Part shown: positions 38,303 to 49,042 of the stretch, piece by piece
How positions within the stretch are numbered: position 1 is the first letter of the stretch
Layout: each line of letters begins with the position of its first letter
Assembly: GCF_963921235.1 (NCBI RefSeq)
Contig: NC_086097.1
Span: 61,320,001-61,384,000 of the forward strand
DNA length: 64,000 bases
Reading direction: 5' to 3'
Source: Mobula hypostoma
Taxonomy: Eukaryota
Program-made: the position numbers and the translations under genes
The notes under the pieces: generated by a model
What the model was told of the DNA's origin: nothing
Seen by the model: only the letters and a program-made list of their open reading frames with translations
Database searches by the model: none

Positions 38303-40855
38303 ATAGAAACATAGAAACATAGAAAATAGGTGCAGGAGTAGGCCATTTGGCCCTTCGAGCCTCCACCGCCATTTATTATGATCATGGCTGATCATCCAAC
38401 TCAGAACCCCGCCCCAGCCTTCCCTCCATACCCCCTGATCCCCGTAGCCACAAGGGCCATATCTAACTCCCTCTTAAATATAGGCAATGAACTGGCCTCA
38501 ACTGTTTCCTGTGGCAGAGAATTCCACAGATTCACCACTCTTTGTGTGAAGAAGTTTTTCCTAATCTCGGTCCTAAAAGGCCTCCCCTCTATCCTCAAAC
38601 TGTGACCCCTCGTTCTGGACTTCCCCAACATTGGGAACAATCTTCCTGCATCTAGCCTGTCCAATCCCTTTAGGATTTTATACGTTTCAATCAGATCCCC
38701 CCTCAATCGTCTAAATTCCAACGAGTACAAGCCCAGTTCATCCAGTCTTTCTTCATATGAAAGTCCTGCCATCCCAGGAATCAATCTGGTGAACCTTCTT
38801 TGTACTCCCTCTATGGCAAGGATGTCTTTCCTCAGATTAGGGGACCAAAACTGCACACAATACTCCAGGTGTGGTCTCACCAAGGCCTTGTACAACTGCA
38901 GTAGTACCTCCCTGCTCCTGTACTCGAATCCTCTCGCTATAAGTGCCAGCATACCATTCGCCTTTTTCACCGCCTGTTGTACCTGCATGCCCACTTTCAA
39001 TGACTGGTGCATAATGACACCCAGGTCTCGTTGCACCTCTCCTTTTCCTAATCGGCCACCATTCAGATAATAATCTGTTTTCCTATTTTTGCCACCAAAG
39101 TGGATAACTTCACATTTATCCACATTAAATTGCATCTGCCATGAATTTGCCCACTCACCCAACCTATCCAAGTCACCCTGCATCCTCTTAGCATCCTCCT
39201 CACAGCTAACACTGCCACCCAGCTTCGTGTCATCCGCAAACTTGGAGATGCTGCATTTAATTCCCTCATCCAAGTCATTAATATATATTGTAAACAACTG
39301 AGGTCCCAGCACTGAGCCTTGCGGTACCCCGCTAGTCACTGCCTGCCATTCTGAAAAGGTCCCGTTTATTCCCACTCTTTGCTTCCTGTCTGCTAACCAA
39401 TTCTCCACCCACACCAATACCTTACCCCCAATACCGTGTGCTTTAAGTTTGCACACTAATCTCCTGTGTGGGACCTTGTCAAAAGCCTTTTGAAAATCCA
39501 AATATACCACATCCACTGGTTCTCCCCTATCCACTCTACTAGTTACATCCTCAAAAAATTCTATGAGATTCGTCAGACATGATTTTCCTTTCACAAATCC
39601 ATGCTGACTTTGTCCGATCATTTCACTGCTTTCCAAATGTGCTGTTATCACATCCTTGATAACCGACTCCAGCAGTTTCCCCACCACCGACGTTAGGCTA
39701 ACTGGTCTATAATTCCCTAGTTTCTCTCTTTCTCCTTTTTTAAAAAGTGGGGTTACATTAGCCACCCTCCAATCCTCAGGAACTAGTCCAGAATCTAACG
39801 AGTTTTGAAAAATTATCACTAATGCATCCACTATTTCTTGGGCTACTTCCTTAAGCACTCTAGGATGCAGACCATCTGGCCCTGGGGATTTATCTGCCTT
39901 CAATCCCTTCAATTTACCTAACACCACTTCCCTACTAACATGTATTTCGCTCAGTTCCTCCATCTCACTGGACCCTCTATCCCCTACTATTTCTGGAAGA
40001 TTATTTATGTCCTCCTTAGTGAAGACAGAACCAAAGTAATTATTCAACTGGTCTGCCATGTCCTTGGCCCCATAATCAATTCACCTGTTTCTGTCTGCAG
40101 GGGACCTACATTTGTCTTTACCAGTCTTTTCCTTTTTACATATCTATAAAAGCTTTAACAGTCCGTTTTTATGTTCCCTGCCAGTTTTCTCTCATAATCT
40201 TTTTTCCCCTTCCTAATTAAGCCCTTTGTCCTCCTCTGCTGAATTCTGAATTTCTCCCAGTCCTCAGGTGAGCCACTTTCTCTGGCTAATTTGTATGCTT
40301 CTTCTTTGGAATTGATACTCTCCCTAATTTCTCTTGTCAGCCACGGGTACACTACCTTCCTTGATTTATTCTTTTGCCAAACTGGGATGAACAATTGTTG
40401 TAGTTCATCCATGCAACCTTTAAATGCTTGCCATTGCATATCCACCATCAATCCTTAAAGTGTCATTTGCCAGTCTATCTTAGCTAATTCACGTCTCATA
40501 CCTTCAAAGTTACCCCTCTTTAAGTTCAGAACCTTTGTTTCTGAATTAACTATGTCACTCTCCATCTTAATGAAGAATTCCACCATATTATGGTCACTCT
40601 TTCCCAAGGGGCCTCTCACGACAAGATCGCTAATTAACCCTTCCTTATTGCTCAAAACCCAGTCCAGAATAGCCTGCTCTCTAGTTGGTTCCTCGACATG
40701 TTGGTTCAAAAAACCATCCCGCATACATTCCAAGAAATCCTCTTCCTCAGCACCTTTACCAATTTGGTTCACCCAATCTACATGTAGATTGAAGTCACCG
40801 ATTATAACTGCTGTTCCTTTATTGCACACATTTCTAATTTCCTGTTTAATACCAT
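38303..40855 (-). mobile_element. Young CR1 LINE, 5'-truncated within the endonuclease domain
   Basis: (TTTCTATG)n tail. ORFs 40455..40829, 40155..40451 and 38401..40059. Near-identical to 44950-46600. Confidence 0.97.
38401..40059 (-). CDS. CR1 ORF2 reverse transcriptase domain (uninterrupted 552 aa; probably non-functional because 5'-truncated)
   Basis: KSPGPDG, YRPVSL, QHGF, DFQKAFD, GVPQGSVLGP and FADD are all present in one frame. Confidence 0.9.
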   Translation of the reverse strand: MADQLNNYFGSVFTKEDINNLPEIVGDRGSSEMEELSEIHVSREVVLGKLKGLKADKSPGPDGLHPRVLKEVAQEIVDALVIIFQNSLDSGLVPEDWRVANVTPLFKKGEREKLGNYRPVSLTSVVGKLLESVIKDVITAHLESSEMIGQSQHGFVKGKSCLTNLIEFFEDVTSRVDRGEPVDVVYLDFQKAFDKVPHRRLVCKLKAHGIGGKVLVWVENWLADRKQRVGINGTFSEWQAVTSGVPQGSVLGPQLFTIYINDLDEGIKCSISKFADDTKLGGSVSCEEDAKRMQGDLDRLGEWANSWQMQFNVDKCEVIHFGGKNRKTDYYLNGGRLGKGEVQRDLGVIMHQSLKVGMQVQQAVKKANGMLALIARGFEYRSREVLLQLYKALVRPHLEYCVQFWSPNLRKDILAIEGVQRRFTRLIPGMAGLSYEERLDELGLYSLEFRRLRGDLIETYKILKGLDRLDAGRLFPMLGKSRTRGHSLRIEGRPFRTEIRKNFFTQRVVNLWNSLPQETVEASSLPIFKRELDMALVATGIRGYGGKAGAGF

Positions 40856-44004: not shown

Positions 44005-44949
44005 TCCGAGTTCAAAGTAAAATTTATTATGAGAGAACAAATATGTCACCACATACAACCCCGAGATTCTTTTCACCTGCAGGCATACTTAGTAATTCTA
44101 CGGAACGGTACTTTTTAAAAAGGATAAATGAATAACAAACCGTGAAAGTGCAAACATAAATAAATAACAATAAATAACGAGTATGAAACAATGAGAAAAA
44201 GAGACCTTAAAGTGAGATCAGCAGTTGTGGGAACACCAGAAATAGAATGAGAGTAGTTATCCCCTTTTGTTTAAGAGTCTGATGGTTGAAGGGTAGTAAC
44301 TGTTCTTGAACCTGGTGGTGTGAGTCCTGAGGTACTTGTACCTTCTACCTGATGGGTGCAGTGAGAAAAAAGCGTAGCCTGGGTGGTGAGGATCTTTGAT
44401 CATGGATGCTGCTTTTCTATGGCAATGTTTCATGTACCTGTATTCAATGGTTTCGAGGGCTTTACCCATCATGTACTGTGCTGAATCCACTATCTTTTGT
44501 AGGATTTTTCACTTAAGGGCATTGGTGCTCCCATATCCATCCATAATGCAGCTAGTCAGCACACTGTCCACAACACATCTATAGAAGTTTACCAAGGTTT
44601 TTATTGACGAGTTGTAACTCCACAGACTCTCGAAGAAGCAGAGGCACTGCTTTGCTTTCTTTGCAATTATATTTATATGATGGGTCCAGGACAGGTCCTT
44701 TGAGATAGTGACACCCAGGAATTTAAAATTATCTACCCTCTCCACCGCCGAGCATCCAATCAGAACTGGCTTATGGCCCTCTGTTTTTTCTTTTCTGATG
44801 TCTACAATCAGTTTCTTGGTCTTATTGACATTGAGTGAGAAGCTGTTGTTATTAGACCACTCAGCCAAATTTTCAATCTCCCTTCTGTATGCTGATTCAT
44901 CATCACCTTTGATACAGACCACAAAGTTGTGTAATCAGCAAACCAGTAT
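44005..44949 (-). mobile_element. Rex1-type LINE 3' part; continues at 48348-48675 beyond the CR1 insertion
   Basis: ORFs 44257..44490 and 44509..44922. ORF 48216..48701 (TTLEHLDSKDAYIRMLF..GTPQGFVLSP) is the upstream continuation. Confidence 0.85.
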
Positions 44950-45134
44950 ATAGAAACATAGAAACATAGAAAATAGGTGCAGGAGTAGGCCATTTGGCCC
45001 TTCGAGCCTGCACCGCCATTTATTATGATCATGGCTGATCATCCAACTCAGAAACCCGCCCCAGCCTTCCCTCCAAACCCCCTGACCCCTGTAGCCACAA
45101 GGGCCATATCTAACTCCCTCTTAAACATAGCCAA

Positions 45135-46259
45135 TCAACTGGCCTCAACTGTTTCCTGTGGCAGAGAATTCCACAGATTCACCACTCTCTGTGTGAAGAA
45201 GTTTTTCCTAATCTCGGTCCTAAGAGGCTTCCCCTCTATCCTCAAACTGTGACCCCTCGTTCTGGACTTCCCCAACATCGGGAACAATCTTCCTGCATCC
45301 AGCCTGTCCAATCCCTTTAGGATCTTATACGTTTCAATCAGATCCCCCCTCAATCTTCTAAATTCCAACGAGTACAAGCCCAGTTCATCCAGTCTTTCTT
45401 CATATGAAAGACCTGCCATCCCAGGAATCAATCTGGTGAACCTTCTTTGTACTCCCCCTATGGCAAAGATGTCTTTCCTCAGATTAGGGGACCAAAACTG
45501 CACACAATACTCCAGGTGTGGTCTCACCAAGGCCTTGTACAACTGCAGTAGTACCTCCCTGCTCCTGTACTCGAATCCTCTCGCTATAAGTGCCAGCATA
45601 CCATTCGCCTTTTTCACCGCCTGTTGTACCTGCATGCCCACTTTCAATGACTGGTGTACCCCGCTAGTCACTGCCTGCCATTCTGAAAAGGTCCCGTTTA
45701 TTCCCACTCTTTGCTTCCTGTCTGCTAACCAATTCTCCACCCACACCAATACCTTACCCCCAATACCGTGTGCTTTAAGTTTGCACACTAATCTCCTGTG
45801 TGGGACCTTGTCAAAAGCCTTTTGAAAATCCAAATATACCACATCCACTGGTTCTCCCCTATCCACTCTACTAGTTACATCCTCAAAAAATTCTATGAGA
45901 TTCGTCAGACATGATTTTCCTTTCACAAATCCATGCTGACTTTGTCCGATCATTTCACCGCTTTCCAAATGTGCTGTTATCACATCCTTGATAACTGACT
46001 CCAGCAGTTTCCCCACCACCGACGTTAGGCTAACCGGTCTATAATTCCCCAGTTTCTCTCTCCCTCCTTTTTTAAAAAGTGGGGTTACATTAGCCACCCT
46101 CCAATCCTCAGGAACTAGTCCAGAATCTAACGAGTTTTGAAAAATTATCACTAATGCATCCACTATTTCTTGGGCTACTTCCTTAAGCACTCTAGGATGC
46201 AGACCATCTGGCCCTGGGGATTTATCTGCCTTCAATTCCTTCAATTTACCTAACACCAC
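45135..46259 (-). pseudogene. CR1 ORF2 RT part lacking the catalytic core
   Basis: AVTSGV is joined directly to HQSLKVG. The PQGS..FADD segment is absent. Confidence 0.9.
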
Positions 46260-47179
46260 TTCCCTACTAACAGAACCTTTGGTTCTGAATTAATTATGTC
46301 ACTCTCCATTTTAATGAAGAATTCCACCATATTATGGTCACTCTTACCCAAGGGGCCTCTCACGACAAGATCGCTAATTAACCCTTCCTCATTGCTCAAA
46401 ACCCAGTCCAGAATAGCCTGCTCTCTAGTTGGTTCCTCGACATGTTGGTTCAAAAAACCATCCCGCATACATTCCAAGAAATCCTCTTCCTCAGCACCTT
46501 TACCAATTTGGTTCACCCAGTCTACATGTAGATTGAAGTCACCCATTATAACTGCTGTTCCTTTATTGCACACATTTCTAATTTCCTGTTTAATACCATC
46601 TCCGACCTCACTACTACTGTTAGGTGGCCTATACACAACTCCCACCAGCGTCTTCTGCTCCTTAGTGTTACGCAGCTCTACCCATATCAATTCCACATCT
46701 TCCCGGCTTATGTCCTTCCTTTCTATTGCGTTAATCTCTTCTTTAACCAGCAACGCCACCCCACCTCCCCTTCCTTCATGTCTATCCCTCCTGAATATTG
46801 AATATCCCTGAACGTTGAGCTCCCATCCCTGGTCACCCTGGAGCCATGTCTCTGTGATCCCAACTATATCATAATCATTAATAACAATCTGCACTTTCAA
46901 TTCATCCACCTTATTACGAATGCTCCTTGCATTGACACATAAAGCCTTCAGGCGCTCTTTTACAACTCTCTTAGCCCTTATACAATTATGTTGAAAAGTG
47001 GCCCTTTTTAATGCTTGCCCTGGATTTGTCGGCCTGCCACTTTTACTTTTCTCCTTTGTACTTTTTGCTTCTACGCTCACTTTACACCCCTCTGTCTCTC
47101 TGCACTGGTTCCCATCCCTCTGTTGTGAACTAACCACCTCACACCTAGCCTCTTTAATTTGATTCCCACCCCCCAACAA
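46250..47179 (-). pseudogene. CR1 ORF2 N-terminal part (APE endonuclease), frameshifted by a deletion
   Basis: VNARS, GITETW, VYRPP, MGDFN, ILD and SDH motifs. The frame ends at the deletion junction near 46270. Confidence 0.9.
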
Positions 47180-47181
47180 TT

Positions 47182-48117
47182 CTAGTTTAAAGTCACCTCA
47201 GTAGCCCCCGCTAATCTCCCTGCCAGGATATTGGTCCCCCTAGGATTCAAGTGTAACCCGTCCTTTTTGTACAGGTCACGCCTGCGCCAAAAGAGGTCCC
47301 AATGATCCAAAAACTTGAATCCCTGCCCCCTGCTCCAATCCCTCAGCCACGCATTTATCCTCCACCTCATCGCATTCCTACTCTCACTGTCGCGTGGCAC
47401 AGGCAGTAATCCCGAGATTACTACCTTTGCGGTCCTTTTTCTCAACTCCCTTCCCAGCTCCCTATATTCTCCTTTCAGGACCTCATCCCTTTTCCTACCT
47501 ATGTCATTGGTACCTATATGTACCACGACCTCTGGCTCCTCACCCTCCCACTTCAGGATATCTTGGACACGATCAGAAATATCCCGGACCCTGGCACCAG
47601 GGAGGCAAACTACCATCCGGGTCTCTGGACTGCGTCCACAGAATCGCCTATCTGACCCCCTTACTATCGAGTCCACTATCACAACTGCCCTCCTCTTCCT
47701 TGCCCTACCCTTCTGAGCTACAGGGCCAGACTCTGTGCTGGAGGCACGGCCACTGTCGCTTCCCCCGGGTAAGTTGTCCCCCACAACAGTACTCAAACAA
47801 GAGTACCTGTTGTTAAGGGGCACAGCCACCGGGGTACTCCCCATCACCTGACTTTTCCCCTTCCCCCTCCTAACCGTGACCCACTTGTCTGCCTCCCGTG
47901 GCCCCGGCATGATCACCTGCCTTCCACTCCTCTCTATCAACTCCTCACTCTCCCTGACCAGACGAAGGTCATCGAGCTGCAGCTCCAGTTCCGTAACGCG
48001 GTCCCTTAGGAGCTGTATCTCGATGCACCTGGCGCAGATGTAGACGTCCGGGAGGCTTGGAGACTCCAGGGCCTCCCACATCCGACACCGAGAACAGCAA
48101 ACTGTCCTCACAGTCAT
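47182..48117 (-). CDS. CR1 ORF1 protein: Cys zinc-finger/coiled coil plus SGNH (GDSL-type) esterase domain
   Basis: CSRC..CARC, leucine-rich LLRDRVTELELQL, and SGNH blocks VVIVDSIVRG, LPGA, HIGTND, DGLHLN. First ATG at 48117. Confidence 0.9.
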   Translation of the reverse strand: MTVRTVCCSRCRMWEALESPSLPDVYICARCIEIQLLRDRVTELELQLDDLRLVRESEELIERSGRQVIMPGPREADKWVTVRRGKGKSQVMGSTPVAVPLNNRYSCLSTVVGDNLPGGSDSGRASSTESGPVAQKGRARKRRAVVIVDSIVRGSDRRFCGRSPETRMVVCLPGARVRDISDRVQDILKWEGEEPEVVVHIGTNDIGRKRDEVLKGEYRELGRELRKRTAKVVISGLLPVPRDSESRNAMRWRINAWLRDWSRGQGFKFLDHWDLFWRRRDLYKKDGLHLNPRGTNILAGRLAGATEVTLN

Positions 48118-49042
48118 AATGCCCCTCTCCTCAAATAGCAACAGAAAATGAATGTCAAACCTTCCTCGCCTCGCCCGCTTCCGCCTAAGCCCGGTGAGGC
48201 GAAGCCCTTAAGTCTTCACTCTGCTCCCGGCTCACTCTGCCGCCCGCAAACTATGCTGCCCGCTCTATGAGGCTTTGTTCCTTTTAAATCTGCCACGCTG
48301 CACTGCCCGACGTCACACGCCTGCGCAGTCCCGCCTCTCAGAAAGCCGGTGTTGGAGCTGTGCTTAGCCACACAGTCATTGGCGTAAAGCAAGTAGAGCA
48401 GGGGACTAAGCACAAATCCCTGTGGTGTTCCTGTGCTGATAGAGATTATGGAGGAGATGTGCTTGCCAATCTGAATTGACTGGGATCTGCAAATGAGGAA
48501 ATCCAGTATCAAGTTACACAAGGGGTATTGCAGCACACATGAGAGTTTGCTGATTAGTTTTGAGGGGATGTTGGTATTAAATGCCGAGCTGTGACGGAAA
48601 AAGAGCATCCTGATGTATGCATCTTTGCTGTCCAGATGTTCCAAGGTTGTGTGAAGAGCCAGTGAGATAGCACCTTTAAATGGCAGTGTTTCTAGAGGCA
48701 ATCATCATTAAGGGCCCCACCCCTCATCGCCCGAGACATGCTCGCTTCTTATTACTCCAATCAGAGAGGAGGTATACACTATATATTCCACTGCAATGCT
48801 GCCACAAAACAACAACTTTCACAACAAACATCAGCGATAAGAAACATGATTCTGATTCTGGTTCTAGTAGTCTAGGACAGGACTTTGGACTGTACCACTG
48901 TGGAATGCAGTGTTCTGGACGTGCTGATTGATAGACACTGGCAGACTGGCAGACTGGATCATGGAAGTAGTCATCCTGAGGAGAGCCGATATTTTGTGAT
49001 TGATGGAGCCTATTCTATTTCCCAGATCAGTGCATCAGAAAT

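Follow-up and report, generated by a model that had tools for sequence, protein, structure and literature searches.

In the coronavirus IBV, ORF1b is reached from ORF1a by a −1 ribosomal frameshift on the heptamer U_UUA_AAC, and there, as in retroviral gag-pol, a structural-like ORF is joined to a polymerase ORF (PMC5009743). In this review U_UUA_AAC, G_GGA_AAC and A_AAA_AAC are listed among the most shift-prone heptamers, and a stop near the slip site is said to matter in pea enation mosaic virus. The arterivirus PRRSV is described there as carrying an unstructured short motif, CCCANCUCC, from 11 nt 3' of the shift site, which is bound by nsp1beta and PCBP in a protein-stimulated frameshift; to the authors of this review no natural G-quadruplex stimulator of frameshifting was known (PMC5009743). 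Among LINEs, the Dictyostelium elements TRE5-A and TRE3-A, which are two-ORF APE-type non-LTR elements, are stated to need a −1 frameshift for ORF2 (PMC5911963), and a frameshifting LINE therefore has a precedent. SART1 uses UAAUG coupling (PMC2699510), and initiation of L1 ORF2 is thought to be AUG-independent (PMC5009743). Chicken CR1 and zebrafish ZfL2-1 have an esterase ORF1, an APE-RT ORF2 and an octamer-repeat 3' end, and the passages cited on them describe two ORFs but do not address the translation of ORF2 (PMC11835228, PMC2734521, 10.1101/788562, PMC3905857). In the chicken genome CR1 outnumbers every other interspersed repeat (PMC11835228).

The window analysed here is a stretch of 64,000 nucleotides from the genome of Mobula hypostoma, in which CR1 is very abundant. 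It carries a copy of a CR1-type LINE, assigned to a family called A, which is dead because of two internal deletions in ORF2. The features are:

44944–48351, minus strand: the dead family A copy, about 98% identical by blastn to its sister copies L155, L156 and L158, against which the deletions measure about 587 and about 312 nt
47182–48117, minus strand: ORF1, 311 aa, ending L-N-TAG (PF13472, E 7.9e-16; esterase structure PDB 4C1B, E 2.6e-27)
47185–47191, minus strand: slippery heptamer T_TTA_AAC in the phase of ORF1 (from sequence and cross-lineage comparison)
47182–47184, minus strand: stop of ORF1, abutting the heptamer, TAG here and TAG or TAA in all lineages examined
47165–47174, minus strand: G-box, GGGGG from 10 nt past the heptamer, followed by two bases that vary and by GG(G); a candidate stimulator
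46934–47191, minus strand: −1 frame linker from the heptamer to the first endonuclease motif, 86 codons, no Met and no stop
46271–46933, minus strand: APE-type endonuclease part of ORF2, which contains the first Met and is where the first deletion cuts (PF03372, PF14529)
45090–46271, minus strand: what is left of the reverse transcriptase and the C-terminal part of ORF2; the second deletion lies at 45656–45658 (PF00078)
44944–45057, minus strand: short 3' UTR with octamer repeats at its end, without poly(A)

The copy thus combines an esterase ORF1 and an APE-RT ORF2 with a 3' end of short repeats without poly(A), the last being a feature of CR1-clade LINEs, and its ORF2 shares 39% identity over 628 aa with a swallow RT protein in a pairwise match. 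ORF1 consists of a CX2CX16CX2C finger, a coiled-coil-like stretch (both read from the sequence) and an SGNH/GDSL esterase, with the match to the solved esterase ending at residue 302, short of the C-terminal tail. The nearest named homologues are from rays and sharks; P0022 and P0072, recorded under Pseudomonas aeruginosa and a frog parasite, seem to come from contaminating vertebrate DNA. At 47670–47672 (minus strand) the window copy has V-D-S in place of the esterase G-D-S of nearly all relatives. The copy is nested in an older LINE of another type, RT fragments of which flank it on both sides (48352–48701 and 44257–44943, minus strand), and no target-site duplication was apparent around it. 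A second family A copy at 38303–40855 (minus strand), 97% identical to sister copies, is 5'-truncated and its junction is missing.

An earlier note on this DNA had proposed that ORF1 and ORF2 are joined by a −1 frameshift, and its reading of the letters was accurate. The minus-strand sequence quoted for 47200 to 47165 is correct, plus-strand 47185–47191 reads TTTAAAC on the minus strand, and the heptamer lies in the X_XXY_YYZ phase of ORF1 directly before the TAG, so that ORF1 ends E-V-T-L-N-stop (ACT TTA AAC TAG). The ORF2 frame (46250–47197) opens after a TGA two codons upstream of the heptamer, would be entered by a −1 slip, and holds no Met before VIMGDFN, inside the endonuclease. Heptamer, stop and G-run together occur once in the window (0.03 matches expected), and in the genome the exact motif has 19,348 matches against 4 for a reversed control pattern.

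For family A, an own-genome DNA search gave 1362 candidates, 40 of which were scored and the 30 best loci used. These copies are 99% alike, and the heptamer with TAG was in phase in 30/30. An in-frame 27-nt deletion splits them into 15 copies with a linker of 86 codons and 14 with one of 77, one further copy being shifted. In L155 and in the intact L156 the ORF2 frame stays open past the heptamer for 989 and 1014 codons, and codon 216 is its first Met. Of the 30 closest copies, 29 have TAG-A-ATG-G, and most family A copies therefore have an AUG one base past the stop, where the window reads TAG-A-ATT-G. This AUG lies in the third frame, which opens for only 8 codons. The ATT variant of the window also occurs in other genome copies, and the AUG-type base is the majority at 47178 in four public runs (not confirmed to be RNA).

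Families B to F were found in the same genome by searches with divergent ORF1 proteins, and a metagenome scan gave 33 loci, of which 10 were grouped as bird-like on the basis of their protein tails; the others comprised 3 that are cut off ahead of the junction, 3 of other types and 17 without a C-terminal match. L062 (no C-terminal match) and L126 (a duplicate of L110) were dropped. Loci were anchored on the esterase tail minus its last four residues. In this sampling, which favours L-N families since the ORF1 queries themselves end in L-N, TTTAAAC followed by TAR had its expected position at 102 of 123 loci, which cover bird-like CR1 as well as six ray families (A 30/30, B 24/30, C 11/19, D 12/12, E 10/13, F 7/9, bird-like 8/10). 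The 21 loci without the exact heptamer and TAR are mostly old or decayed copies. Esterase identity between representatives of the groups is 24–71%. In L081, a locus with a distant esterase ORF1, the heptamer is absent, the stop overlaps ATGA (a stop-start) and the next frame closes after 31 codons.

The codons were compared across 11 lineages (six families and five bird-like loci) over 164 esterase columns. A single codon is kept in 3 of 19 invariant degenerate residues, C171, L310 (TTA) and N311 (AAC), and 16 of the 17 besides L310 and N311 use two to four codons. The third base is kept in 3 of 143 variable columns (219, 282 and 309), and column 309, whose third base directly precedes TTA, always has T there under seven amino acids. 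In these ORFs TTA serves for 27 of 178 Leu and AAC for 19 of 60 Asn. The three constrained positions at the end of ORF1 are exactly those that a slippery heptamer would need, in lineages that are related and recombining and not independent; because of this relatedness no P-value is attached to the invariance. The invariant T before TTA matters for re-pairing, not for a start codon. The heptamer is conserved in phase and beyond amino-acid need, as the proposal in the earlier note implied.

The frame downstream was compared in the same way. The endonuclease is in the −1 frame of the heptamer for the commonest form of every group, whatever the length of the linker (39, 49, 50, 53, 54, 60, 65–67, 68, 72, 77, 80, 86 or 110 codons); the linkers differ greatly in sequence as well. 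Per copy, the linker has 0–0.5 stops in this frame in five groups and 2.0 in C and F, which are old families; the other frames have 2.7–11. Upstream of the heptamer, families A, B, C and D and most copies of F have the −1 frame closed within 1–5 codons. A fresh sample of the first 30 genomic motif matches, which is circular for the motif and not for its context, had the esterase motif in phase in 25/30, the other 5 sharing the tail but being damaged upstream. The endonuclease motif was located in 22/30 and was in the −1 frame in 19 of these 22, and the linker was Met-free in 12 of the 19 in-frame loci.

Start codons are more variable. In family A there is no in-frame AUG before the endonuclease in 29/29 in-frame copies, and to this extent the description of ORF2 as AUG-less holds; it is not general, because in family E the junction reads UAAUG, its AUG being in frame with ORF2 (9–10 of 10 copies), 4/8 bird-like loci have an AUG at codon 5 (2 more have GUG), and the linkers of families B, D and F often contain a Met at a later position. 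Of 14 lineages or loci, 5 have an in-frame AUG within 5 nt of the stop, family A not among them, and tallies of codons 4 and 5 across CR1 families revealed no conserved start codon near the junction. Families A and E share 62% identity in the esterase but 90% at the start of the endonuclease (L001–L030 against L110 and L123–L134), and C and F share 38% and 74% (L051–L070 against L135–L143). From these values the ORF1 and ORF2 halves appear to have been swapped between CR1 lineages near the junction, and family A has the look of a chimera that would have taken its linker and endonuclease from a family E-like element, minus the two Met codons of E. Family A has nonetheless spread without these two codons, as copies 99% alike indicate. 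No amino-acid constraint was seen on the linker between A and E (4 synonymous and 17 non-synonymous changes).

The junction therefore has an in-phase X_XXY_YYZ heptamer kept beyond amino-acid need and a −1 frame open into ORF2. This signal is real and is deeply conserved across CR1 lineages, from rays to bird-like copies. Because the heptamer, the stop and a G-run at fixed distance are all kept over this range, a −1 slip likely makes ORF2, and we consider it probable, with a good deal of confidence, that the junction is a programmed −1 frameshift site making a predicted fusion of ORF1, endonuclease and RT. Most ribosomes would terminate at the end of ORF1, releasing ORF1p. A pause due to the stop codon and the G-box may allow tRNA-Leu and tRNA-Asn to re-pair on UUU-AAA, and the minority of ribosomes that slipped back one base would make the predicted ORF1-ORF2 fusion carrying the endonuclease-reverse transcriptase, the ratio of ORF1p to fusion being set as that of Gag to Gag-Pol.

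In its heptamer this junction is identical to IBV, and in its layout it resembles IBV and gag-pol; it differs from them in that no stem-loop or pseudoknot stem 5–9 nt downstream was found by folding and in that the overlap is only a few codons, and from gag-pol in that ORF1 is an esterase protein and not Gag. TRE5-A and TRE3-A share the two-ORF organisation but are of another lineage with another ORF1, live in an amoeba host and have an ORF2 with a zinc finger. Like SART1 and L1, CR1 has a bicistronic LINE RNA, and the family E junction even carries UAAUG, whereas across CR1 families it is the heptamer that is conserved and not the start codon.

G-runs after the stop had been mentioned in passing in the earlier note; they are indeed present, but prove to be an invariant element at fixed spacing. 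In a gap-free alignment fixed on the heptamer, all 13 lineages or loci of sufficient length have G at offsets 17–21, with 24–26 mostly G, and the GGGGG always begins after 10 nt. Among the invariant bases are third and first positions of codons whose amino acids differ between lineages, and the Gly codon of the G-box is GGG in 13/13 compared with 74 of 252 Gly codons in ORF2. Nearby candidates for a stimulator are this invariant G-box, starting at the 11th base, and the adjacent stop, both in a putative role. As the earlier note had remarked of the window, there is no clear downstream hairpin: no stable fold was found in the 90 nt downstream, with z-scores of −2.1 to +1.7 for 12 lineage sequences and 0.46 for the window region. 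A local hairpin or pseudoknot stem was rejected as stimulator, none being found by folding, and so was a long-range partner of the G-box, the best duplexes lying at differing places with none shared (17 junction matches in long G000 stretches). Local G4Hunter-type scores are in the top 0.1–12% of sequence windows and a quadruplex is part of the best fold in 6/12 sequences, which is suggestive only of a G-quadruplex at the G-box.

Because no fold was found and the distance matches that of protein-bound viral stimulators, the G-box, if it stimulates slippage, likely does so through a bound protein or contact with the ribosome and not as a hairpin. In beginning at the 11th nucleotide it is like the PRRSV motif, but it is G-rich and not C-rich, there is one productive shifted frame, and a binding protein is only putative. 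In the bird-like loci L074, L075 and L083 a small inverted repeat lies downstream of the G-box, about 30–55 nt past the heptamer (folded in L074, seen by eye in L075 and L083), which is absent in the ray families.

The main rival to a frameshift is termination-reinitiation, in which ribosomes would terminate at the end of ORF1 and begin again a short way downstream, at an AUG where one exists or at another codon, the heptamer and G-box being the signal that would hold the ribosome. The open in-frame linker fits this equally well, the UAAUG of family E and the AUG or GUG codons of the bird-like loci would serve it directly, and SART1 and L1 provide the precedents cited above. It leaves unexplained, however, why the XXXYYYZ form is invariant, first T included, and why distant relatives end in G-N and K-N (see below). 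There is also no conserved candidate for the start codon, the nearby AUG of family A is out of frame, and the calicivirus-type 18S-complementary motif UGGGA is at no common upstream distance, the TGGGA positions differing between families. We regard it as an unlikely, though serious, explanation of the junction; reinitiation could nevertheless operate where an in-frame AUG exists, alone or beside the frameshift.

Much less probable is that the motif is a DNA or RNA element apart from decoding, either an internal promoter of ORF2 or a homology box for recombination. TTTAAA followed by the G-box might be taken to resemble a core promoter, and the apparent swaps of ORF1 and ORF2 halves near the junction (A/E, C/F) would suit a recombination box. 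Such an element would leave the Met-free families without a start for ORF2 and does not predict that linkers of varied length are all in one frame with the heptamer, and a recombination box cannot keep the motif fixed between rays and bird-like copies.

That ORF1p needs a C-terminal L-N, with its codons inherited by descent and the rest due to chance, is strongly disfavoured and has very little probability. Codon invariance of this kind does occur, because C171 keeps its codon and columns 219 and 282 keep their third base, but this does not account for three adjacent invariant positions together with a five-G run at fixed spacing, codons vary at nearly all the other invariant residues, and the match to the solved esterase stops short of the tail. 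Equally improbable is splicing of an upstream start to ORF2 with the junction as branch point and 3' splice site. In families B, D, E and F a CAG precedes the G-run, and a word like CTAAT or CTAAA lies upstream. In family A, however, AG is missing at that position; moreover, fewer than 10 nt separate the putative branch point from the AG, a pyrimidine tract is absent, and none of the 15 joints listed from four runs (not confirmed RNA) is a minus-strand GT-AG joint into the junction.

The proposed frameshift also draws support from the protein tails of more distant relatives. An L-N ending occurs in 55 of 65 homologues with the catalytic motif, including named frog and hummingbird proteins, and also in named lizard and swallow proteins. 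Of the 150 top-ranking clusters from a profile search, 110 had the motif and 99 of them a short tail; these 99 short-tailed distant esterase proteins comprise 46 ending in L-N, 11 in G-N, 3 in K-N and 39 otherwise, while slip-compatible dipeptides make up 4.8% of the internal background. L-N, G-N and K-N are the dipeptides encoded by U_UUA_AAC, G_GGA_AAC and A_AAA_AAC, and it is predicted from their protein ends that the G-N and K-N relatives use the latter two heptamers. The names attached to the G-N and K-N proteins were of no use. DNA of distant relatives was found neither in viral contigs nor in plasmids, genome contigs gave six weak matches to prokaryote records, and own-genome searches with P0025 and P0087 at strict cut-offs gave no match. 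Two motif matches in viral contigs are not counted as CR1 junctions. A search for longer proteins, a weak one, found no natural ORF1-ORF2 fusion. One distant esterase group (P0164, P0193, P0218, P0230, P0238 and P0186) ends in F-F-R, G-F-R or F-L-G-R-V, tails that would likewise fit a slippery site lying one codon, or a few, ahead of the stop.

The first descriptions of full CR1 sequences (Haas 1997; Kajikawa 1997) and the work of Kapitonov and Jurka 2003 may mention an overlap of the CR1 ORFs. Those works lay outside the literature searched here, in which, including excerpts of PMC3708506 and PMC5408684, no report of a CR1 frameshift was found. New here are the invariant GGGGG 10 nt past the heptamer, the absence of a hairpin, the excess of genome matches over the control (19,348 versus 4) and the G-N and K-N relatives.

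It is tentatively suggested, as a wider proposal that may well prove too broad, that esterase-type CR1 LINEs of jawed vertebrates, and probably their G_GGA_AAC and A_AAA_AAC relatives, have relied for >400 million years on a −1 frameshift driven by the adjacent stop and a protein-bound G-box and not by an RNA fold, which would be a protein-controlled frameshift in a cellular transposon. In any event the G-box is compact and testable, and is a candidate for a new kind of frameshift stimulator. If the frameshift is true, annotations that begin ORF2 at its first Met cut off part of the endonuclease, and the junction would be a guide for studying CR1 retrotransposition in cultured cells. The reverse transcriptase of CR1 would then be born fused to the esterase protein, in the fashion of Gag-Pol.
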